Shown: one piece after another, positions 5,192-42,633 of the stretch
Numbering within the stretch: the stretch's first letter is position 1
Layout: each line of letters opens with the position of its first letter
From: Escherichia phage YD-2008.s
DNA: 44,613 nucleotides
Direction: 5' to 3' (one strand)
Sequence record: NC_027383.1
The notes under the pieces: generated by a model
Seen by the model: only the letters and a program-made list of their open reading frames with translations
What the model was told of the DNA's origin: nothing
Databases searched by the model: none
Made by a program: the position numbers and the translations under genes

Positions 5192-5658
5192 AATTACTGA
5201 TTTGCGATTTGGATGGAGTTATTAACGGTTCAAGCGATGCGCGCGCTGACCTGGTGCCGGGTATAAAAACTAAATCCACCTTTTGGGCGAAGTGGCACAA
5301 AGCGCACGTCCGCGAAGACCTGAACATGGATATGCTGCCGCTACTGCGCATGTATAAAGAGCAAGGCTTCGAGATCGCGTATCTGACCAACCGGCAGCGA
5401 GAATGTTGGGACACCACCGCCGAGCAATTGGAGGTCTTCCCGGTAGGCCGGTTGTTTATGCGCCACATGCTGGACGACACCCCGCCGCCTGAGTTTAAAG
5501 CGTGCGCCGTGTTCAAAATGGTATGCTACGCGGACGTGTCGGAACTTGTCATCATTGAAGATTGCGAGAAGAACATCGCGGCAATTCGTCGGGCGTGTGG
5601 TGATTTGGTCCCGAAAATTTACGCAATAAACGTTGCAAAATTCACTTGCAACCAATAG
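5188..5658 (+). CDS. HAD-superfamily phosphatase/nucleotidase-like protein
   Basis: 156 aa; N-terminal DxDGV motif (LICDLDGVINGS) typical of HAD motif I. Confidence 0.55.
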   Translation: MKLLICDLDGVINGSSDARADLVPGIKTKSTFWAKWHKAHVREDLNMDMLPLLRMYKEQGFEIAYLTNRQRECWDTTAEQLEVFPVGRLFMRHMLDDTPPPEFKACAVFKMVCYADVSELVIIEDCEKNIAAIRRACGDLVPKIYAINVAKFTCNQ

Positions 5659-5675
5659 GTTGGTTGCACTATAGT
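5646..5675 (+). promoter_or_regulatory. sigma70-like promoter TTGCAA-N18-TATAGT overlapping an inverted GCAACCAAT/ATTGGTTGC box pair
   Basis: -35 5646-5651, -10 5670-5675; inverted repeat GCAACCAAT agg TTGGTTGCA inside the spacer. Confidence 0.45.
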
Positions 5676-6319: not shown

Positions 6320-6895
6320 ATGTACGGCGAATATGAAATATCTGGTAAACAATTCCACCTGGCGGCAATGATAGCAAGCATCGAGTTTGACCAGTGGCGG
6401 TATAAGTCCGACGCGTGCAAGCAAAGCCGTCTTGTCGGTGTGCTGGGCGAAATGTTTGCAGGCATGTACCTCGAAGGCCAGGCGGGCGGGCGTAGTTGTA
6501 TCCCGCAAGGTTTGCTAATGCGTACCGGCCTGTTTAGCGCTAATACTATCGACCGCGGCGATATTATCATGGTCGGCAAGCGCAAGGTAAAATCCGGCCC
6601 CGACTTCCGAGAACATACGATTGATGCCGTCTGGACATACGAGGTCAAAGCTACCAGCGGCATCCGTCGCGGGCTGGTTGAGGCACGTTGCGCTCGCGAA
6701 TACCTTACCCGTCGCGTTGCCGGTGTTATCCTTGTGGGCGTAGATTTCGGGCAACATAGCGCGCGCGGCGTGATCGAGGATATCGCGGAGCCATACGTGA
6801 TAGTGAACGACTGGCCACTGGTGGAAGTGGATGGTAAGGAATACTACGAAAGCCCGCTGGTGCGGCGCAAAATGGACTGGGAGAACTCAAACTAA
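6320..6895 (+). CDS. hypothetical protein (191 aa), possible PD-(D/E)xK-like
   Basis: GAGGGG RBS before ATG 6320; DIIMVGKRK...TYEVKAT weakly resembles a D...E-x-K nuclease signature. Confidence 0.45.
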   Translation: MYGEYEISGKQFHLAAMIASIEFDQWRYKSDACKQSRLVGVLGEMFAGMYLEGQAGGRSCIPQGLLMRTGLFSANTIDRGDIIMVGKRKVKSGPDFREHTIDAVWTYEVKATSGIRRGLVEARCAREYLTRRVAGVILVGVDFGQHSARGVIEDIAEPYVIVNDWPLVEVDGKEYYESPLVRRKMDWENSN

Positions 6896-6916
6896 AAAAG
6901 GGGCCGTATGGCCCCT
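6896..6916. terminator. bidirectional intrinsic terminator between convergent genes
   Basis: AAAAAA GGGGCC gtat GGCCCC then T-rich; T-run on the minus strand, A-run on the plus side. Confidence 0.6.
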
Positions 6917-6921
6917 CCTAT

Positions 6922-9093
6922 TCATTTCTTCAGCGCCGCGATCTCGGCCTCCATAGCCTCGATCTTCTGCATCAACACTTGCACAACGTGCATGGTGTCC
7001 AGTAACAGCGGGGTAGTATCCAGTTCTTTCTGCGTTACGTCAGGTGTGTCACTGGTCAGTCCAGAGTATGTCCGGGTCTTGACGTAAAGACTATCCACAA
7101 CTTCCGCTTGTTGTGCAACGAGGCCGCGGCGTTGACGACCTTGCGTGTCGTTATTGTACACAAACGTGTGGAACCTTAACGCCTTGATATTACTCCACGC
7201 TTTATCAACGGTTGTAGGCGTGATGTCATGTTTCATATTGGCATCAGACACAGCACTTGTGACGAACTGGTAGTTGCCGGACGTACCTGATGATGCCGGG
7301 GCACCGTCTGCGGTAAAAGAAAAGGTTCGTTCGGTTACACCTGCGTCCTGTAGCACTAGCTGGTGACCACGGGTTGTCGCGTTACCACCAATCTGTCTGA
7401 ACGAATACGACAACGTTTCGTAGTTTACAGCGGTTCCAATTTTATAGGTCGACTTGATCATGCCCCCATTCACGGTGACACCGGATACTGGTGACGTAGT
7501 GTCTGCGTTTTCAACACTCCACGACGTATTGGCCGCTACGAATCCACCGGATGCACGGATCACCCAGACGCCTACGAAGTTACGGCCCATAATTTCATCG
7601 GTAGATCTTCCGTAGATAGGGTTTGACTGCGATGCGTCAACCACGAGGGTATTAAAGCGTCCGGATACTAAAGGTACAGTAGTTTCCGGAATTGCAACAC
7701 CTGCTCCGGCAGGGAATAGGTCGTTGTTTGTTTTAAATGCACCTTCAGTGATATCACTGAATATCTGAGCGTATGTCGATGCAGAATAACCAGCAACACT
7801 GCCAGAGATATTAGGTGCTGCTGATTCAAAAATCTGACCATTTGTGGAAGAAGTACCGCCATCACCACGACCATACAAGCCGGGTATTGAGTTAACTTGT
7901 ACACCGTTACGGTCGGGTACGCGAAACGTTGTCGTACCATTACCGAGCGAGTATTTACCGCGTTTTGCTGGGTCTGCCAGCCAGTCGGCGTCACTGATAG
8001 GTGAGAGCATCTGAGCATAAGCCCAAAGTTCAGGCCAGTCAGCGCGGTTAAGAAGCTGCCCGTCTGAGACGACTTCATAAGGCTGAATATATGCGCGACT
8101 ATCACGCAGGTGGAAGTCGCCGACACCGTAGTTCATCACGCCATTCATTGTTGGGCCAACTGTGCCCGTGTTAATCATGTTCTGCACCCAGCGCTTAGTA
8201 ACGGCGTCGTAGTCGTTAACTGGGTCGCCAGCAAGCGGCGTGGCCCCATCCGGGCGAACGTTAAGCCAGGCTTGCGGTTTGTCGGTGAGTCCTGCCAGGT
8301 TGCCGGATTTGGTTAGCAGGTCATCCACGTTTACGCTTTTCGCCCACTCCTCGGCCTCGTTACGGTATCCCAGCGCGGCATCACGGGCGGCTTGCGCATC
8401 AGTCTTCGCTGTATTAGCCTCGTCGCGAATAACGCCGGTGTCAGTCTTGATCTGGTTCGTTTGGTCTTTGATCGCCTGCGTATCAGCCTTAATCTGGGCA
8501 GTCTGCGTCTTTATGGTATTAGTGGCGTCGTGGATCGCCTGCGTATCGGCCTTGATTTGGTTGGTCTGCGTCTTGATGGTATTGGCATCGTTCTTGAAGC
8601 CTTCGGCCTCATTGCGAAATCCTTGCGCTGCTGCTTCAGACGCGGCGGCTTGTTGTTGTAGGTTGCGCATTTCAACGGGGTCGATCTGCTTCATCAATTG
8701 CGACAGGTAGCCCCATGACATACCCTGCATAACTTGCCCGTTGGGCAGCGTAACGGTGATCTCTTCAGCGTCGCCGAAGATTGCACGCCAGTTGTTTTCA
8801 TCCGCAATCATCAAGCGCAATGCTTTCTGTGCCTGGACTGTTACGCCCATCGTCGCCAGTGACATGGTATCGCGCGCAACGCCATCCCAGGCAAGGCCGG
8901 TTGCCGTGGGGCCGTCGAACGGCAGCACCAGCGTAAGCGCGGTGTCGCTTTCGACGGACGCGATAGCAACAGTGTAAGGGACTTGCCCCACCACCAGCGT
9001 TAAGAAGTCGCCAGCTTTAAACGCGGTGAACGTCGTGCCGACACCGACTACCGCCTTGCTGTTATTCGTTACGGATAGTGTACCCGCTGCCAT
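6922..9093 (-). CDS. tail fibre protein with C-terminal intramolecular chaperone (peptidase S74-like) domain
   Basis: 723 aa; 21-aa tandem coiled-coil repeats (NTIKTQTNQIKADTQAI...); C-terminal ~105 aa starts with an S-D-x-x-x-K motif (SDANMKHDI) and ends in a coiled coil. Confidence 0.65.
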   Translation of the reverse strand: MAAGTLSVTNNSKAVVGVGTTFTAFKAGDFLTLVVGQVPYTVAIASVESDTALTLVLPFDGPTATGLAWDGVARDTMSLATMGVTVQAQKALRLMIADENNWRAIFGDAEEITVTLPNGQVMQGMSWGYLSQLMKQIDPVEMRNLQQQAAASEAAAQGFRNEAEGFKNDANTIKTQTNQIKADTQAIHDATNTIKTQTAQIKADTQAIKDQTNQIKTDTGVIRDEANTAKTDAQAARDAALGYRNEAEEWAKSVNVDDLLTKSGNLAGLTDKPQAWLNVRPDGATPLAGDPVNDYDAVTKRWVQNMINTGTVGPTMNGVMNYGVGDFHLRDSRAYIQPYEVVSDGQLLNRADWPELWAYAQMLSPISDADWLADPAKRGKYSLGNGTTTFRVPDRNGVQVNSIPGLYGRGDGGTSSTNGQIFESAAPNISGSVAGYSASTYAQIFSDITEGAFKTNNDLFPAGAGVAIPETTVPLVSGRFNTLVVDASQSNPIYGRSTDEIMGRNFVGVWVIRASGGFVAANTSWSVENADTTSPVSGVTVNGGMIKSTYKIGTAVNYETLSYSFRQIGGNATTRGHQLVLQDAGVTERTFSFTADGAPASSGTSGNYQFVTSAVSDANMKHDITPTTVDKAWSNIKALRFHTFVYNNDTQGRQRRGLVAQQAEVVDSLYVKTRTYSGLTSDTPDVTQKELDTTPLLLDTMHVVQVLMQKIEAMEAEIAALKK
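8405..8600. repeat. ~63-bp tandem coding repeats inside the tail fibre gene
   Basis: GATCGCCTGCGTATC(A/G)GCCTT(A/G)AT...GTCTGCGTCTT(T/G)ATGGTATT repeated about three times. Confidence 0.6.
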
Positions 9094-19252: not shown

Positions 19253-19267
19253 TATGCAGTCCCCCTT

Positions 19268-19650
19268 TTTATGCAGTTGCCGTCGGTCATTGTATCAGCG
19301 AATTTAAAACAAACCTTATTCAGTCTCAGACGAGGGGGGCCATTGACCCCCGTCTAGTCTGAAAGACTGGGCTTTGTCCCGCCTGTCCCGATCGGCTAAA
19401 ACCCGCGGCAGCACTGGCTGGGACAGGGGTGCTGTCCCGCTTTGTCCCGCCCAATTCTGCCCCGCTTTTTGTCCCGTTTGTTTTATGCAGAAAAACCGCA
19501 TAGCCATTCACTTTTGAGGGGTGGGACAGATCGGGACAGCACCCCCGTCCCGCTTTTAGTTTATGCAATGAAAGTGAGTATATATGCGGTTTAATGGTGG
19601 CGGGACAAAACGGGACGTCCCGCCTGTCCCGCTTCGTTATGCGGGGTTCT
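19268..19650. repeat. iteron-rich structured noncoding element A
   Basis: ~380 bp without a credible ORF; at least 12 GTCCCGC/GCGGGAC heptamers; hairpin AGACGAGGGGG...CCCCCGTCT; palindromes GGGACAGGGGTGCTGTCCC and CGGGACGTCCCG; core 19307..19480 is homologous to 35962..36135. Confidence 0.6.
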
Positions 19651-20313
19651 GCCGCGCCATTTCATCCAGCGCAACGCGTTCCATTAGCTTGATATCTTTA
19701 AACGCGCGTTGCGCGTTTTCGATGCCGTGCATCTTAAATAACCATTCCAGCACGCCGTAGTCGATGCCGTATGCGCCACCGAATCCGGTGCGCCATTGCG
19801 TGGAGCAATCTGTGAAGACTGCGACTACCTTCGCATTGTCGGGCCATAGTGCAACCGGGGGGCAAACGTCTTCAGGGGTCGCCCCCCATAAACTCGCGGC
19901 TAAATCTTCGGAGGGTGGCGGCGGGCCATAAAAGCGTCGCGCCGCCTCAATTAGTTTTTTTCACGCAATCCCATCAGTTCGAGATAGTACGACGTATGGA
20001 ACACGCCGAACGCGCGCGGGTAGTTGACCACCAGGCGGCGGACGTTCTCCGCGTTAAATTCGTCCGGCAGATTCCAGCCTTCTGCGACGTGCATGATGGC
20101 CTCGACCATAACGTTAAAGCCGTCCGGATCATTGTCGTCATACTCCGACAACTTGCGCTCAGTATCCTGCATGGTCTGCGAAAACTCGTCAATCGGACGG
20201 TGGCGCACGGTAAACGTCATTTTGCCTGGTTCGTTCTCACCAGGGCGCGGGATCTCAATCGGCAGCTTAAAGGTCGGTTTAGGGTCTAGTGTGAAGAGTG
20301 GTGATTTAGCCAT
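19637..20313 (-). CDS. tail assembly chaperone GT fusion via -1 programmed ribosomal frameshift
   Basis: Canonical slippery heptamer A AAA AAC (minus strand, 19960-19954) at the end of G; the -1 frame stays open for ~106 codons to TAA at 19637-19639. Confidence 0.55.
19951..20313 (-). CDS. tail assembly chaperone G
   Basis: 120 aa from ATG 20313 (GGAGAA RBS); ends ...LREKN at a slippery site. Confidence 0.65.
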   Translation of the reverse strand: MAKSPLFTLDPKPTFKLPIEIPRPGENEPGKMTFTVRHRPIDEFSQTMQDTERKLSEYDDNDPDGFNVMVEAIMHVAEGWNLPDEFNAENVRRLVVNYPRAFGVFHTSYYLELMGLREKN

Positions 20314-20335
20314 TATATAATTCTCCAATAAAAAA

Positions 20336-20352
20336 GGGGCCGTACTGGCCCC
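20336..20352 (-). terminator. intrinsic terminator after the major tail protein gene
   Basis: Minus strand GGGGCC agtac GGCCCC followed by TTTTTTATT. Confidence 0.6.
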
Positions 20353-20382
20353 ATATTAACACCCGCTATTTAAGCGACCAAA

Positions 20383-21108
20383 TTACGACAGCGCCTCGAC
20401 CAAGTCCTTACGGTAAATAACCATATCGGACTGCATAGTGAGGGTGGACTCCACCGTCTCCACGTTGTTTACTTCAGCCGACGGAATCTTGCGGAAAGAC
20501 ACCTTAGCCGGGTAAATGCGGATTTCACCTTTGCCGCTTGCCGCTGCCGGGTTAGTGAACTTAATCACAGTGGTTTTCTGTGTGTCGTCCAGGTCTTCCA
20601 GAATCGGGCGGATCGGGTCTTCTTCGTCGTGGGTGAAAGTGTAGGTCTGGACCAACGGGTTTTTCGTGGTGTTCAGACTGATCGCGGTATTCACCTGCAA
20701 CGGCTGGAAGGTGGTGGTCTGCTGGTCGCCACCCGACACGGCAACGTTAGTGATAAACGGGAAGTCGATAAAGCTCGACACCTTCACGACCTCACCCGGT
20801 GTGCCTACGCCGAAAGCACCGGTCGGGTATTTGGTGGCGTCTTGAGTATCGAAGCGCGCCAGCGTCACGTCGTTCCCGGACACTTTACCCACGATGAACG
20901 CGCGGTTCAGCGCACGGACCCACGGGGTTTTAGTGAACATAACAACGTCGCCAACAACCAGACCGTGAGACTCCGCGCAGGTAATTACGCAACCTTGCGT
21001 AAGGTCGGAGATCGACGCAGCGGCGTTGGTAGCTGCCGTAACCGCGATACCATTGCCTAGTACGGACCCGATCTGGACGCTGGACCCGTTAGGAAGTTGA
21101 TAACCCAT
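20383..21108 (-). CDS. major tail protein
   Basis: 241 aa; sits between neck genes and the G/GT chaperone; followed by a terminator. Confidence 0.65.
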   Translation of the reverse strand: MGYQLPNGSSVQIGSVLGNGIAVTAATNAAASISDLTQGCVITCAESHGLVVGDVVMFTKTPWVRALNRAFIVGKVSGNDVTLARFDTQDATKYPTGAFGVGTPGEVVKVSSFIDFPFITNVAVSGGDQQTTTFQPLQVNTAISLNTTKNPLVQTYTFTHDEEDPIRPILEDLDDTQKTTVIKFTNPAAASGKGEIRIYPAKVSFRKIPSAEVNNVETVESTLTMQSDMVIYRKDLVEALS

Positions 21109-26379: not shown

Positions 26380-26386
26380 CGAAAAA

Positions 26387-26403
26387 GGGGCCATTACGGC
26401 CCC
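26387..26403. terminator. bidirectional intrinsic terminator
   Basis: GGGGCC atta cGGCCCC flanked by an A-run upstream and TTAATTATTT downstream. Confidence 0.6.
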
Positions 26404-35444: not shown

Positions 35445-35750
35445 TTATTTCGCAAGCTGGGCGAATAGTTCGCGCTGGGCTTTAATCCGGGCGACGTTTG
35501 CCACTGCCGTCTCGCCGATCCCGAAGCGATACGCCAGGCGCTCACGGGAGAATGCCTGCGCGAATGTATGGATGGCCTTACGCAACGGCCTCAGTTCGTC
35601 CATGCTGGCGCCCATACCGTAAAGCGCGCTGCGGAGTGATTGATGCGCCAGTATCGCGACCTGAAGCGCCGAGTCTACGTTGCCGTTTAGTGCCTTCGCT
35701 TCGTCCAGCTTTGCCACGGCCAGGGAGTAATTCCAGATAATCGCTTTCAT
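35445..35750 (-). CDS. hypothetical protein (101 aa)
   Basis: First gene downstream of a minus-strand promoter; helical, Ala-rich. Confidence 0.45.
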   Translation of the reverse strand: MKAIIWNYSLAVAKLDEAKALNGNVDSALQVAILAHQSLRSALYGMGASMDELRPLRKAIHTFAQAFSRERLAYRFGIGETAVANVARIKAQRELFAQLAK

Positions 35751-35778
35751 TGTTCAGTCCTCTTGTTGGTGTGCAACC

Positions 35779-35807
35779 AATATAGCTGGGTGCGGGCACG
35801 AATGCAA
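35779..35807 (-). promoter_or_regulatory. sigma70-like promoter TTGCAT-N17-TATATT (minus strand) with two GCAACCAATAT boxes
   Basis: -35 = complement of 35802-35807, -10 = complement of 35779-35784; boxes overlap both hexamers. Confidence 0.5.
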
Positions 35808-35961
35808 CCAATATTAATCACGCGCATGAAAAAGTCGATCGCTATCCGTTGCAACTGCAAACTGCATTTCCCGCCCGCCATTCTGCACCTCGCATTGGTT
35901 GCCTAGTTCATCGACGACCGCAATCCGCAACATGCTGCCGTGTATTTTGCAGTCCTGGATT

Positions 35962-36135
35962 TTATGCAGTCTCAGACGAGGGGGTGACAGACCCCCCGTC
36001 TAGTCTGAAAGACTGGGGTGCTGTCCCGCTGTCCCGCTCCTCGCCAGGCCGCGTCATCCGGGGCGGGACAGGGGTGCTGTCCCGCTTTGTCCCGCCTCCT
36101 GTTTGTCCCGCTTTTTGTCCCGCTTACTTTATGCA
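35962..36135. repeat. iteron-rich structured noncoding element B (homologue of 19307..19480)
   Basis: Same hairpin stem AGACGAGGGGG/CCCCCGTCT with a different loop; GGGACAGGGGTGCTGTCCCGCTTTGTCCCGCC shared block; about 7 GTCCCGC copies; bounded by TTATGCAG on both sides; AT-rich stretch follows. Confidence 0.6.
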
Positions 36136-36229
36136 GTTTTATTGCATAACTATTCATTATATTTACATTACACGGCAACCAATGCGACTAACTAAAAACA
36201 CGCAAAACGGCAACCAATGCGCGCAAAAT

Positions 36230-38500
36230 TTAATCTTTCAGGTCATCATCGGTCGCCGAAAGCGTAATGGGGATACCCGATTTGATAACTAAATTCGACG
36301 ACCCATAGATGGCCCCGGTGTGCGGATCTGTATAGAAACCAATCACGCCGCGCTCTACCATATCGTCAATTGCCTTCGTCGATGTGCCACCTTTCGCGAG
36401 TCCCGCCTGGCGGACGATTGCCGATTTGCTGAATCCGGTATGGTCCGGGTTATCTTCCATCAGCTTCTCCAGTGCTGCATAAAGCACTTTCTCTTTTTCG
36501 GTGCGCGGTCCGGCGGTGTTCTCTTCCTTAACTGCGGCTTTTCCTGCGGCCTTCGCCTGTTCTATAGCGAACGGTGCCAGGGCGACCGGTACGAGGTATA
36601 AAGTCTCGTCGCGCGGGGTGGACGCAATTGGTTTGACGTCCCAACCGGCAACTACGTCTCCGAAGTCCGGACCGGTGCTGGTGGACTGGTGCGACGCGAA
36701 CGCTTCTGACTTGCGGAGATCTATCGCCACCTTGCACTTGAGCAGGACGAAGCCACGCGGCGCTTGCTTGATGCCGTTACGTGATTTTTCGTGGTACAGG
36801 TTAAGTTGTCCCGGCTGGTTGTCGTCCGGCTGTTCCAGGAAGAAAGCGGAATCGACAGCGCCATGAAGCGCACCGGACCCGCGCGGGGATCTGCTGCCGT
36901 TTGCACCCTTCGCCGGGTGGTGGATGACGCCCGCACTGCCACCTGTATTTTCCGCAATGGCTTTCAGCGCTTTGACCACTTCACCCATATCGCTGGCGTT
37001 GTTCTCGTCAAACGGTTTAGCCTCGGCGGACCGCAGCGCAACAGTCTGGTTGAGTGAGTCGAACGCCACCAGGCCAACCGGTTCGCCGTTAGCGGTGCGG
37101 TTGATAAAGCTGATAACTTCGCGCAAGCCTGATTTGCTGGTGATATCCCAGCCGCGTGACTGCAGGTCTATAATGTGCAGCTTGTCCAGGTCGTGCTCAT
37201 ATTTAATCTGCAATGCTTCTTTACGCTGGTTGGAGGCTTCGCCACCTTCCGCGTCGAAATAGAAGCAATGAGACTGGACGACCTTCGCACCGCCGAACGG
37301 AATACCCGCGGCAACCGCACCCATCTGCCCCAGCACATAGAATGACTTGCCTATGTTCGACTCACCCGCCATGTACCAGGTCGATTTGAAGTTAATCAGA
37401 CCTTCGATGATCGGGTCGTGCTTACTGAATAGTGCGACCGGCTCGTTATCCAGGTCCGCATCGGTGCACACGCCGTATTCTTCGCCGTCTCCAACCGCAT
37501 CAACAATATGCTCATATAAGGATTCGACTTCCTCGTCGTCCAGCCCTGGAAGGATGGCGGCGATTTGCTTACGGGACATATTGTGTGGCTCGACGTTCAG
37601 GTGGTCCGGGATCCCGATAAGACGTAGCGCCAGGTGCTGGTGTCTATTCAGTTCCGAGCAACACTCGTTGCCGGTGTGCATACACTTGAAACGGATCTCG
37701 CCATCCTTAACCATGATAGCCGTCGACCCTTCGCCGCTGTGCAGATGTTCGTTCGGGCACGGCACTTCATAACCGCGACCGGAAGATAACTCCTCGAATC
37801 CTGCCTGGAAGCACCAGTCCAGAATACCGTCTGCCACTGCGTCGTCGCCCTGGGTAAGCTCGCGGCGTACTTCCTCTTTTTCCACCCCCAGCTTATCCGC
37901 CAGGCGGAGCAGACGCCGCACATTGGCACGTTTGCCGTAGTGGCACTTAATAACTGACTGCTGGTGTGGCAGGTACATCAGGCGGTTTGTGTCTTTCGTG
38001 CAATCGTCGAAGTCCACATCTGACAGACCAAGTTGGTGTAATAGCGCATACTGGACACGGCCCAGGTCTTCAGCCGGGACAGGCTTGTCAGTGAGTACCA
38101 GGAATCGAGCGCAACGCGTGCCGCCTTTCAGTGGGTGACGGTCGCCGGTGGTTGTGTGAAAAACGTGTTCAAGACCCGCGTCGATGAAAGCCTTACGGCA
38201 GCGGCGCAAGGTGCGAGTGTCGGTGCGGTCGATATCGAAGAACAGGATCGAGCGGTCCACCGCACTGGTCTTGCGGCGAAGGCCGTCACTGGTATATGCC
38301 ACGATGCCATCGGCCTTACGCTTGCGGCGCGCATACTCGGCTTTATCTTCCGTCTTATTGATATGCACCGAGGAGATTTCTTTCGCATCTTTGATAAATT
38401 CGAAAAATTCATCGGTGGTCATCTGGAAGTTTTCCGCCCTGGCTTTTTCGCCTTTTTTAGCGGGTCTTGTTACGGCGAATTTAATTAAACTCATGGTCAT
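36230..38500 (-). CDS. DNA primase/helicase (primase domain + P-loop NTPase)
   Basis: 756 aa; Walker A AGESNIGKS and Walker B-like VGLVAFDS in the central region; size and layout of phage primase-helicases. Confidence 0.75.
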   Translation of the reverse strand: MTMSLIKFAVTRPAKKGEKARAENFQMTTDEFFEFIKDAKEISSVHINKTEDKAEYARRKRKADGIVAYTSDGLRRKTSAVDRSILFFDIDRTDTRTLRRCRKAFIDAGLEHVFHTTTGDRHPLKGGTRCARFLVLTDKPVPAEDLGRVQYALLHQLGLSDVDFDDCTKDTNRLMYLPHQQSVIKCHYGKRANVRRLLRLADKLGVEKEEVRRELTQGDDAVADGILDWCFQAGFEELSSGRGYEVPCPNEHLHSGEGSTAIMVKDGEIRFKCMHTGNECCSELNRHQHLALRLIGIPDHLNVEPHNMSRKQIAAILPGLDDEEVESLYEHIVDAVGDGEEYGVCTDADLDNEPVALFSKHDPIIEGLINFKSTWYMAGESNIGKSFYVLGQMGAVAAGIPFGGAKVVQSHCFYFDAEGGEASNQRKEALQIKYEHDLDKLHIIDLQSRGWDITSKSGLREVISFINRTANGEPVGLVAFDSLNQTVALRSAEAKPFDENNASDMGEVVKALKAIAENTGGSAGVIHHPAKGANGSRSPRGSGALHGAVDSAFFLEQPDDNQPGQLNLYHEKSRNGIKQAPRGFVLLKCKVAIDLRKSEAFASHQSTSTGPDFGDVVAGWDVKPIASTPRDETLYLVPVALAPFAIEQAKAAGKAAVKEENTAGPRTEKEKVLYAALEKLMEDNPDHTGFSKSAIVRQAGLAKGGTSTKAIDDMVERGVIGFYTDPHTGAIYGSSNLVIKSGIPITLSATDDDLKD

Positions 38501-38504
38501 AGCC

Positions 38505-38834
38505 TTATTTGGAAGTTTTATTATTGCGTACCCAGGAGCGCACAGTGCTCTGGTTGATTCCGGTTAGCTCGGCGATCATAGCCCAGGATTTACCTTCCTC
38601 ACGTAGACGGATAACCTGCTTTTTGTATTCTTCCATTTCTTCATTGTGCTTTTGCAGCTTGCTGGCTGCCGTACCGTTGAGTAATTCCAGCTTCGCGCGC
38701 AATTCTTTTTCGGTGAGTCGTAGGCGTTCGATTTCAAATAGCACCGCCCCCACGGCATCGGTATACGCCCAGGACCGGCTTGTTTCACTGCAAACAGTCT
38801 TAGTTAACATTTCGATTGCGTCGTTGATATTCAT
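38505..38834 (-). CDS. HTH DNA-binding protein, candidate transcriptional regulator
   Basis: 109 aa; C-terminal HTH SWAMIAELTGINQSTVRSWVRN; coiled-coil middle; first gene after the divergent promoter region. Confidence 0.5.
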   Translation of the reverse strand: MNINDAIEMLTKTVCSETSRSWAYTDAVGAVLFEIERLRLTEKELRAKLELLNGTAASKLQKHNEEMEEYKKQVIRLREEGKSWAMIAELTGINQSTVRSWVRNNKTSK

Positions 38835-39014: not shown

Positions 39015-39043
39015 TTGACTCCCTTCTGCAACCAATCTAATAT
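39015..39043 (+). promoter_or_regulatory. sigma70-like early promoter TTGACT-N17-TAATAT with GCAACCAAT box in the spacer
   Basis: -35 39015-39020, -10 39038-39043; GGAGAT RBS and ATG 39104 downstream. Confidence 0.5.
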
Positions 39044-39103: not shown

Positions 39104-39616
39104 ATGTTTGAACAAATCGTAAACCTGATTACTCGCGGCGTAGTAGCACTGGAAACCATCGCTAAGCATTATGAAACCGTCGGCGCTGCCGTTGGTAAGC
39201 AGGAAGACAAGAAGCCGTCTAAGGCCAAAAAAGAAGTCGTAGAAGATGACGACGCTGAAGACGAAGCACCGGCGAAAACCAAAAAAGCACCGGCTAAAGG
39301 TAAGGCCAAAAAAGAAGTCGTAGAAGATGACGACGATGAAGAAGCCGAAGACGAAAAACCGGCGAAAACCAAAAAAGCTCCGGCGAAAGGCAAAGGCAAG
39401 AAAGATGCCGACCCGCTGGCAGAGATGCGCGACGAAATCAAACAGTATGCCGCGATTATCGCCGGTGGTGATGACGACGATGCCAACGACGAATTTGACG
39501 ACCTGCTGGAAGCGTTCGAGATCAAATCGATCGCAAAACTGGAAGATGACGACGTAGAAGACTTCCACAAAGATCTGAAAGAAATTGTAGAAACCTATTT
39601 CGAACTGGAAGACTAA
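39104..39616 (+). CDS. acidic/basic repeat protein (170 aa), first early gene
   Basis: Two ~27-aa tandem repeats KKEVVEDDD...PAKTKKAPAKGK; D/E-rich C-terminal half; followed by a terminator. Confidence 0.55.
   Translation: MFEQIVNLITRGVVALETIAKHYETVGAAVGKQEDKKPSKAKKEVVEDDDAEDEAPAKTKKAPAKGKAKKEVVEDDDDEEAEDEKPAKTKKAPAKGKGKKDADPLAEMRDEIKQYAAIIAGGDDDDANDEFDDLLEAFEIKSIAKLEDDDVEDFHKDLKEIVETYFELED
39222..39390. repeat. ~81-bp tandem coding repeat (2 copies) within the acidic protein gene
   Basis: GGCCAAAAAAGAAGTCGTAGAAGATGACGAC...CCGGCGAAAACCAAAAAAGC repeated. Confidence 0.55.
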
Positions 39617-41785: not shown

Positions 41786-41850
41786 GGCAACCAAGCCGAA
41801 CGGGGTGGCTCACAATAACCCCGATACATGTGAAAATGAGGAATTGGAAA

Positions 41851-42633
41851 ATGGCTAAAGTCAACCTGAAAAATGTGCGCGTATGTTTCCTTAATATTTG
41901 GGAACGTGATACCCCTAAACAGGCTGGACAAAAACCGGCATACCGCGCCGTGATTCTTCTGGATAAAGAAGATCCGCAGGTGGATAAAGTGGAAGCGGCA
42001 GCGCGCGCAGCGCTCACCGTCAAGCTGAAATCCGAGAAGAATGCCGATAAGTGGATGGACCGCCACTACGCCCAGGATTCTAAGGAATGCGCAGTCCGCG
42101 ACGGTGACGAGCGTGACGAAGTAACCGAAGAATTTGAAGGCATGTTGTACATCAACGCCAAATCGTTCAAACAGCCGAACATTCAAACGTCACTCGGCGA
42201 GAAGCAGACGGAACAAGGTCTGACTGTAGAAGGCGACGAGATCGAAGGCCAGGAGATCTACTCCGGTTGCTATTGCAATGTGTCCCTGGATATTTGGGCG
42301 TGGAACAATACCAACGGCAAGGGACTCGGTGCTGGCCTTTTGGGTCTGCGCTTCCGTGATGACGGCGAAGCCTTCGGCGGTGGCGGTTCTTCTTGCTCCG
42401 ACGAAGACCTGGGCGACGATGACGAAGATGAACGCCCGCGCAAGTCCAAAAAGTCAAAACGTCGTGATGACGATGACGAAGACGACAAGCCGCGCAAGTC
42501 CAAAAAGTCCAAGCGCCGCGATGACGATGATGATGACGAAGACGAGAAACCTCGTAAACGTCGTAAGCCACGCGATGACGAAGATGAGGACGACGACGAA
42601 GACGAAGCGCCACGTAAACGTCGCCGCCGTTAA
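41851..42633 (+). CDS. putative single-stranded DNA-binding protein with repeated acidic/basic C-terminal tail
   Basis: Start at ATG 41851 with GAGGAA RBS (track start 41830 rejected); N-terminus MAKVNLKNVRVCFLNIWE... resembles phage SSB-like proteins paired with Cas4-like exonucleases; C-terminal tail has four repeats of (D/E)n-PRK(S/R)KK. Confidence 0.5.
   Translation: MAKVNLKNVRVCFLNIWERDTPKQAGQKPAYRAVILLDKEDPQVDKVEAAARAALTVKLKSEKNADKWMDRHYAQDSKECAVRDGDERDEVTEEFEGMLYINAKSFKQPNIQTSLGEKQTEQGLTVEGDEIEGQEIYSGCYCNVSLDIWAWNNTNGKGLGAGLLGLRFRDDGEAFGGGGSSCSDEDLGDDDEDERPRKSKKSKRRDDDDEDDKPRKSKKSKRRDDDDDDEDEKPRKRRKPRDDEDEDDDEDEAPRKRRRR
42412..42630. repeat. ~54-bp tandem coding repeats (4 copies) in the SSB-like gene 3' end
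   Basis: GATGACGA(T/A)GA...CCGCGCAAGTCCAAAAAGTC...CG(T/C)CG(T/C) repeated. Confidence 0.55.

Follow-up and report, generated by a model that had tools for sequence, protein, structure and literature searches.

This analysis concerns element B, an iteron-bearing non-coding element adjoining the primase-helicase gene of Escherichia phage YD-2008.s (NC_027383.1), which is probably a replication origin that uses the adjacent primase-helicase as its own initiator. Partial counterparts are found in lambdoid phages, the IncQ plasmid RSF1010, the satellite phage P4, and the archaeal plasmid pRN1. In lambdoid phages, the ori iterons and the DNA-binding domain of O change together as an exchangeable specificity module, and in lambda itself the ori lies inside the O gene, in a single copy, with O recruiting the host DnaB via P. 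The iterons of RSF1010 are about 20 bp long. The helicase of P4 alpha belongs to superfamily 3 (SF3), and the P4 octamer iteron is said, after work by Ziegelin and Lanka in 1995, to occur in two clusters kilobases apart, ori and crr, both of which are needed in cis. The C-terminal winged helix of alpha binds the repeats at the P4 origin, and its primase is of the Toprim-type, bacterial class (PMC4234260). RSF1010 divides the work among three separate polypeptides, RepA, RepB', and RepC, while pRN1 has a stem-loop origin, without iterons, just 3' of its rep gene ORF904, which specifies an archaeo-eukaryotic primase (AEP) and a helicase of the SF3 type, along with a winged helix; a similar layout has been noted in phage BIP-1 (PMC4234260).

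The window, meaning the whole stretch of DNA analysed, is a complete 44,613-bp Dhillonvirus genome (an SO-1/HK578-like coliphage; IMG/VR entry UViG_2706796251_000001). A literature search found no published paper on the origin or initiation mechanism of Dhillonvirus or Guernseyvirinae. Element B (35944-36230) directly adjoins the 3' end of the primase-helicase gene, which is on the minus strand and whose stop ends the open reading frame (ORF) at 36230-36232, and the non-coding stretch at this end of the gene (35751-36229) extends beyond the element. Together with a second element, A, it forms a pair of direct repeats with an offset of 16,646 bp, which align over 179 columns at 81.6% identity (BLAST, E 5e-36). 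The initial annotation of this DNA had placed element B beside the primase gene, had described it as a homologue of element A, and had pointed out an AT-rich stretch and two direct copies of a box, and each of these features was recovered here, the two box copies being identical at 15 of 15 positions. The repeats were already flagged in the SO-1 GenBank record (2009), which annotates a 'region A' and a 'region B' as mutually similar repeat regions with a 'possible' function. The parts of element B and of the adjoining gene, in descending order of position, are:

36230..38500, minus strand: primase-helicase gene, 756 amino acids (aa); residues 1-~205 AEP primase, 248-281 Cys/His motif, 359-533 AAA_25, ~668-740 winged helix
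36281..36499, minus strand: winged-helix coding region (residues ~668-740), the proposed iteron reader
36172-36186 and 36207-36221, minus strand: two direct ACGGCAACCAATGCG boxes, members of the ATTGGTTGC family
36128..36171: AT-rich tract (GC 0.20), the proposed DNA-unwinding region
36143-36155, minus strand: 13-mer GAATAGTTATGCA, inside the AT-rich tract
36129-36149: palindrome TTATGCA-N7-TGCATAA, inside the AT-rich tract
36022..36123, plus strand: iteron block, with TGTCCCGC at 36022, 36030, 36078, 36088, 36104, and 36116, and an inverted copy at 36063-36070
36038-36062: GC-rich spacer in the iteron block
35967..36016: compound hairpin, reading on the plus strand CAGTCT, then a stem-loop AGACGAGGGGG/CCCCCCGTCT, then a small hairpin AGTCT-GAA-AGACT
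35933..35941, minus strand: ACGGCAGCA motif at the 3' edge of the module, kept in every module-bearing clade, second copies included
35891-35903, plus strand: inverted third box GGCAACCAATGCG, which with the 36172-36221 pair brackets the core of B

There are 13 copies of the iteron TGTCCCGC in the window, where 2.2 would be expected and where none of 100 shuffles reached 13; seven of them lie in element B, within 102 bp, and five in element A. The GC content of the iteron block is 0.72-0.78, compared with ~0.55 for the genome and 0.20 for the AT-rich tract (measured at 36130-36169). The TTATGCA sequence of this tract is also enriched (15 copies, 5.6 expected), and seven of the 15 are found in A and B together. 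Its seven bases could be taken as the start of a DnaA box, an idea that was dropped because the bases that follow vary between clades. The paired ACGGCAACCAATGCG boxes are kept in 14 of 15 aligned Dhillonvirus B elements.

The module is conserved well beyond the genus. A 4-kb probe around element B matched 156 phage records at ~88-92% identity, nearly all of them Escherichia or Shigella phages, and a scan of viral contigs gave 42 loci with primase-helicase homologues. Eleven relatives, representing nine further clades with 37-83% protein identity, shared one arrangement of parts beyond the primase stop: first a box (resembling ATGTTGGCTG in the Guernseyvirinae-like clades), then a GAATAGTTATGCA pair in AT-rich DNA, three to four direct iterons and one inverted, a GC-rich spacer, two iterons, the compound hairpin, a TTATTCAT/TATGCA stretch, ACGGCAGCA, and often a consensus-like promoter. 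The AT-rich 13-mer, the position of which does not shift between clades with differing iterons, and ACGGCAGCA are constant, whereas the iterons are clade-specific: GCGGGACA in Dhillonvirus, ACTCGCAA in Klebsiella phage VLCpiS11a, GGGGGAGA in FSL SP-031 and TS6, and GGGATAA, CCGACA, CGGACAA, GGCGGACAA, or GGGGATGA in further clades. In FSL SP-031, TS6, VLCpiS11a, and the window, the iterons are confined to these elements genome-wide. A constant AT-rich part and ACGGCAGCA combined with changing repeats is the pattern expected if some sites co-evolve with a specificity domain and lie beside others that serve conserved machinery.

Natural recombinants indicate which protein domain would read the iterons. 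The primase-helicase of relative L041 is 98-99% identical to those of L037 and L039 over residues 1-640 but 49% identical in the winged helix, and the iterons are CCGACA in the former and GGCGGACAA in the latter two. Its winged helix is nearest to those of L045 (72%) and L032 (69%), and all three share CCGACA, although the cores of L045 and L032 are only 78-80% identical to that of L041. A second case is provided by L044 and L036, with cores 96% identical, winged helices 46% identical, and differing iterons. The residues just before the third helix of the winged helix also track the iteron (DGGRRRPA with CCGACA, GGGN(Q/S)RRR with CGGACAA, KGG(D/G)RY with GGGGA(G/T)). In contrast, the small XRE-type helix-turn-helix (HTH) protein encoded upstream in relatives is identical in L041 and L046 and has three substitutions in L039, while these three carry three different iterons, and it is likewise common to L044, L036, and L045 despite their iteron differences. 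This protein was, therefore, rejected as the iteron binder of the relatives that carry it; the 109-aa HTH protein of the window is of a different family. As a correlation, iteron sequence appears to follow the C-terminal winged helix, and neither the protein core nor the small upstream HTH of relatives, and this suggests that recombination exchanges the 3' end of the primase-helicase gene and the putative origin as one cassette.

The domains of the primase-helicase were resolved partly by sequence and partly by structure prediction. Pfam returned a single match, to AAA_25 (RSF1010 RepA-type) over residues 359-533 (E 2.4e-19), and the PHROG match was 'replicative helicase-primase', while the direct sequence match to RSF1010 RepA (1g8y) was weak (E 0.09-0.4). 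Pfam and PDB sequence searches of the N- and C-terminal parts gave no usable match, and only structure prediction resolved them. The model of residues 1-350 (predicted local distance difference test, pLDDT, 85) had as its best fold match the AEP domain of the cyanophage S-2L PrimPol (6zp9, E 1.6e-5) and as its second best RSF1010 RepB' with initiator DNA (3h25, E 2.6e-3, probability 0.99). The model of residues 600-756 (pLDDT 80-90) contained a helix-helix-helix-wing unit, which both fold searches gave as a winged helix and which is, at the level of fold class, the type used by Cdc6/ORC initiators. On this evidence, a single chain unites an AEP primase of RepB'-like fold, a helicase of the RepA type, and a winged helix. 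It ends in an acidic tail, DDDLKD, at residues 750-756 (36233-36253, minus strand), and the tail pattern D-D/E-D-L-x-D/N is kept in 20 of 20 aligned homologues though the region preceding it is variable. Such a tail recalls the polymerase-docking C-terminal tails of T7 gp4 and SSB.

The compound hairpin folds as single-stranded DNA on both strands (-14 to -15 kcal/mol, z about -2.9 to -4.0), and its structure is kept across clades. Pairing of the small hairpin is retained via two-sided changes in four of 11 other-clade sequences, and the arm sequence, which is present three times (X, X', and X' again past the G/C stem), changes in step in 10 of 11 inspected sequences. The arms resemble the iteron of their own clade (AGACT and GGACA, GGAGA and GGGGAGA), so that either hairpin pairing or protein specificity may have caused these changes, and in several clades there is an inverted iteron within the loop of the G/C stem. 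The terminator scan and Rfam classed the hairpin neither as an intrinsic terminator nor as a structured RNA. Within an origin it may fit either as a set of weak palindromic initiator sites or as a hairpin resembling those at the single-strand initiation (ssi) sites.

The resemblance of B to an origin, put forward in the initial annotation, is thus supported by the conservation of the module, the co-variation of iteron and winged helix, and the domain folds of the primase-helicase. From the observed anatomy, conservation, co-variation, and folds, we infer binding, melting, priming, and origin activity as follows. The C-terminal winged helix would bind the TGTCCCGC iterons, six direct and one inverted, together with the weaker iteron-like arms of the hairpin. 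The bound protein would be concentrated there, and a RepA-like helicase ring would assemble on, or melt, the 20%-GC tract with its GAATAGTTATGCA/TTATGCA sequences. The exposed strands could form the G/C-rich hairpin beside ACGGCAGCA, where the RepB'-like AEP domain may start primers, by analogy with RepB' on the ssi hairpins of RSF1010. Element A, having the same iterons, would be bound by the same winged-helix domain and might act as a second origin or as a cis-acting partner of B, like the crr of phage P4, while the CGGCAACCAATGCG boxes would be the sites of a separate, genome-wide regulator.

Several observations weigh against the predicted origin at B. No DnaA box was found in A or B, the single match to TTWTNCACA in the window (38155) being outside both; such boxes occur in many plasmid iteron origins but are not universal. 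Cumulative GC skew, a check named by the initial annotation, gave no independent support: its minimum (~38.5-39.5 kb) and maximum (~9 kb) both fall at coding-strand switches, and it is uninformative on replication because the turning points coincide with switches of the transcribed strand. A Foldseek search with the winged-helix model gave no match at E 0.001, and P4 alpha was absent among the matches listed. In a related clade (L028-L031 and L034), the primase-helicase stop is followed only by a strong terminator hairpin and opposite-strand genes, with no cluster of iterons to be found within 3 kb; the position of the module is therefore not universal, and the origin of this clade, if iteron-based, must lie elsewhere. 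Conservation within Dhillonvirus is 86% for the iterons and 91% for the hairpin, against 90% for the primase coding sequence, and as the element is about as conserved as that sequence, within-genus conservation is uninformative on constraint; invariant columns are in modest excess in the iterons (70%, versus 48% in spacers). Lastly, since the winged-helix codons lie less than 300 bp from the iterons of B, linkage could explain part of the co-variation. Adjacency cannot, however, explain the iteron match itself, because element A, 16.6 kb away, shares the iteron of B, and the same holds for the Edwardsiella phage eiAU described below.

Element A occupies a gap at the junction of the tail chaperone and tape-measure genes, which is normally tight:

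19253..19636: element A, 384 bp of non-coding DNA that exactly fills the gap from the tape-measure start (19252) to the tail-chaperone T ORF (frameshifted; stop at 19637)
19321-19369: hairpin of element A
19375-19476, 19519-19553, and 19596-19632: iteron clusters of element A, kept apart by two AT-rich spacers of the TTATGCA type

It contains 11 GTCCCG cores, five of them exact TGTCCCGC, and was found in 149 of 157 related phage records (coverage of at least 80%). The tail assembly chaperone beside it has the classic G/GT arrangement: at 19951-19961 on the minus strand, a run of seven A's (19955-19961) comes shortly ahead of the stop codon of the 125-aa chaperone, while an ORF without a start of its own (19637-19960) reads on in the -1 frame to 19637 and matches SO-1 gp16. 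Several GenBank records, MW862804 (UAE_MI-01), MN158213 (BEK2-2), PQ295796, and OX460974, have an end within element A, and that of eiAU (KF772233), which is linear, opens in the equivalent gap; because the genus packages by headful, these are probably assembly breaks at the A/B repeat and not true ends.

Second copies were also present outside Dhillonvirus. In the Edwardsiella phage eiAU (Eiauvirus), a homologous pair of elements occupies the positions of A and B but carries a different motif, CGCCCCG (52 nt at 88% identity, E 1e-13); the pair therefore predates the split of Dhillonvirus and Eiauvirus, and its repeats have changed in concert. A single cluster, located after the primase, is present in FSL SP-031 and TS6, and the site of B is therefore taken as ancestral. 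In Klebsiella phage VLCpiS11a (L049), a second copy (35,652-35,934) with four more ACTCGCAA and a match of 74 nt at 81% lies in the gap between head-morphogenesis and spanin-like genes, and Serratia phage Tsm2 (L080) has one in the equivalent gap (20357-20574). The second copies thus occur at two different positions, always in a late-operon gap and in sense orientation, and with the AT-rich part, the hairpin, and ACGGCAGCA. Across Dhillonvirus, A-A and B-B identities are ~86-87%, and those between A and B are about 76%, indicating old paralogues that have evolved mostly separately. Concerted evolution of the two was considered, and the signal for it was weak: A and B are 76.9% identical when taken from one genome and 75.1% when taken from different ones (permutation p 0.004), which hints at slight exchange.

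A wider proposal, offered tentatively and as less likely than not, is that a group of enterobacterial siphoviruses (Dhillonvirus, Eiauvirus, and part of Guernseyvirinae) could share a portable, self-contained replicon, in which three IncQ functions, those of a RepB'-like primase, a RepA-like helicase, and an iteron reader, are fused in one protein and the origin module lies just 3' of its gene. The second copies in late operons would then be working origins or crr-like looping partners, tying replication to the late genes.

The boxes of element B belong to a larger family. The core GCAACCAAT has 13 exact copies in the window (0.5 expected), mostly intergenic:

970, 3726, 3743, 5648-5667, 9110, 25223, 35239, 35773, 35804, 35894, 36175, 36210, and 39028: ATTGGTTGC/GCAACCAAT boxes
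35771..35812, minus strand: two ATATTGGTTGCA boxes, which between them give TTGCAT-17 nt-TATATT upstream of the minus-strand gene that follows (start 35750)
38505..38834, minus strand: gene for the 109-aa HTH protein (Pfam HTH_23, Sigma70_r4_2), directly upstream of the primase-helicase gene

The pair at 5648-5667 is a near-perfect palindrome. The box recurs 21 times in eiAU, as GCAACCAAC, and a similar TGTTGGCTG is present in Guernseyvirinae-like relatives. The orientation of the boxes is flipped in L018, a relative at 68% identity, which makes it unlikely that they serve as fixed promoters directed towards the core of B. The duplicated boxes that the initial annotation listed within the iteron element are indeed there, but they are not specific to it: the CGGCAACCAATGCG boxes look like a genome-wide, operator-like motif, the half-sites of a regulator. 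The ATTGGTTGC boxes may be bound by the 109-aa HTH protein, for which this analysis found no link to the iterons.

It is unlikely, though conceivable, that transcriptional control is the function of A and B, with the hairpin ending or attenuating an operon, the boxes and downstream hexamers restarting it, and the octamers acting as operators, possibly for the winged helix of the primase. Both elements lie between co-oriented genes, in same-strand runs and in sense orientation; one ATTGGTTGC box falls inside the spacer of a predicted promoter (TTGACT-17-TAATAT, 39015-39043); a consensus-like promoter follows the module in relatives (for example, TTGACA-17-TATTGT in L032); and in several relatives the hairpin is followed by TTATTCATT. 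However, promoter and terminator scans called nothing inside either element, the hairpin of Dhillonvirus has no T-run after it, and the TTGCAT-17-TATATT at 35771-35812 was read by hand only, the consensus promoter scan calling none there. Seven to 11 repeats of mixed orientation beside a 20%-GC tract would also be an unusual layout for operators, and this explanation does not account for specificity residing in a domain of the helicase-primase, nor for AT-rich 13-mers that stay constant amid changing iterons. Regulatory and origin roles can, in any case, coexist.

A further alternative accepts B as the origin but makes A a locus of negative control or titration, like incA of P1 or incC of F, which pairs with B or soaks up initiator. 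A second cluster of iterons outside the origin is common in iteron plasmids; iteron copies are more numerous in A than in B (11 GTCCCG versus seven), many of those in A forming palindromic pairs, and A is without ATTGGTTGC boxes. We regard this as decidedly unlikely: a virulent phage gains little by limiting its copy number, A retains a full origin-like kit (AT-rich TTATGCA spacers, hairpin, and ACGGCA motif), and the second copies of VLCpiS11a and Tsm2, at another late-operon gap, also keep such parts.

Very improbable is a role of the compound hairpin as RNA, either a put-like antitermination element or a small RNA in two copies, with the iterons incidental. Two adjacent stem-loops are kept across clades with compensatory changes, both copies are in the sense orientation of their flanking genes, and HK022 has two homologous put sites. 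Yet Rfam gave no family at the gathering score (its permissive mode returned only sub-threshold, miRNA-like palindrome matches), the hairpin folds equally well as DNA on both strands, its arms are iteron-like, so that protein specificity could yield apparent covariation, and the co-variation of iteron and winged helix would be left unexplained.

The idea that A and B are pac or recombination sites, read by terminase or recombinase, can draw on the breaks of several relatives' records inside A, the end of eiAU in the equivalent gap, and the labels 'transposase' or 'resolvase' given in some records to the HTH gene beside the primase, but it is extremely improbable and was not retained, since the genus is reported to package by headful (Dhillonvirus genomes assemble as circles, and a headful mechanism is the PhageTerm prediction; PMC9022532), while, in addition, the terminase genes lie several kb from both elements, judged by the SO-1 gene map as a guide, short-read assemblers break records at repeats of ~180 bp, the 'transposase' is merely the 109-aa HTH protein, and a resolvase acting on direct repeats would delete 16.6 kb of essential genes.

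Some other features of the genome were recorded. A 170-aa protein (39104-39616, plus strand) carries tandem repeats in which acidic D/E runs alternate with basic KPRK/KKAPAKGK blocks, and the same type of acidic/basic repeat is found in the C-terminal tail (42400-42633, plus strand) of a 267-aa ORF (41830-42633). Near-identical hairpins of terminator type, AAAAAGGGGCC...GGCCCC with T/A runs on both sides, are present at 6893-6915, 20329-20351, and 26381-26403, and one of these three AAAAAGGGGCC hairpins lies between the major tail protein and chaperone genes. A 63-bp tandem duplication (8444-8569, 73% identity) is located within a 723-aa minus-strand gene, the counterpart of the tail fibre gene of SO-1.

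Dhillonviruses, together with their relatives in Guernseyvirinae, rank among the coliphages and Salmonella phages that are isolated most frequently, and their use in therapy is widely proposed. The testable prediction made here comprises a concrete candidate origin, the domain that would read it, and several natural exchanges of specificity, and it may be of use for phage-derived replicons, for genome engineering that spares replication, and for foreseeing whether co-infecting relatives would be incompatible or would cross-activate one another. The second, origin-like copies in late operons, at two lineage-specific positions, are the part likeliest to teach something new, since the genes for the tail chaperone and the tape measure usually leave little room between them.

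Compared with the systems described at the outset, the locus combines features of all four. Like P4, the phage has one polypeptide carrying primase, helicase, and a C-terminal winged helix (the likeness of the phage winged helix being at the level of fold class), and the same octamer occurs in two clusters, here 16.6 kb apart, one of them beside the primase-helicase gene. It differs in having an AEP primase and a RecA-type AAA_25 helicase, with neither a PDB sequence match nor a top-ranked fold match to alpha. By analogy, the primase-helicase most likely works like P4 alpha without being a member of the P4 ori/crr-alpha system. The resemblance to RSF1010 lies in the fold of the RepB' primase (3h25), the AAA_25 helicase with its weak match to RepA (1g8y), and the make-up of the candidate origin, in which iterons are joined by GC-rich and AT-rich stretches and by a hairpin that could be a primase entry site, without DnaA boxes. 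In contrast to RSF1010, the functions appear fused in one chain, with the winged helix in place of RepC and no separate initiator gene seen, a single palindromic hairpin that can fold on both strands stands where RSF1010 has ssiA and ssiB on opposite strands, the order of the origin parts is different, and the iterons are of 8 bp. With pRN1 the locus shares an operon in which a small DNA-binding gene (a repressor in pRN1) precedes an AEP primase-helicase-winged-helix gene, with a conserved stem-loop 3' of it, but here iterons dominate, the helicase is of the RepA-like AAA_25 type, and a second copy exists. The lambdoid phages, finally, offer the parallel for specificity, as in both groups, when related phages are compared, a change of iteron goes with a change in the initiator's DNA-binding domain; unlike theirs, the candidate origin described here is outside the gene and present in two copies, and its predicted initiator brings its own helicase and primase.

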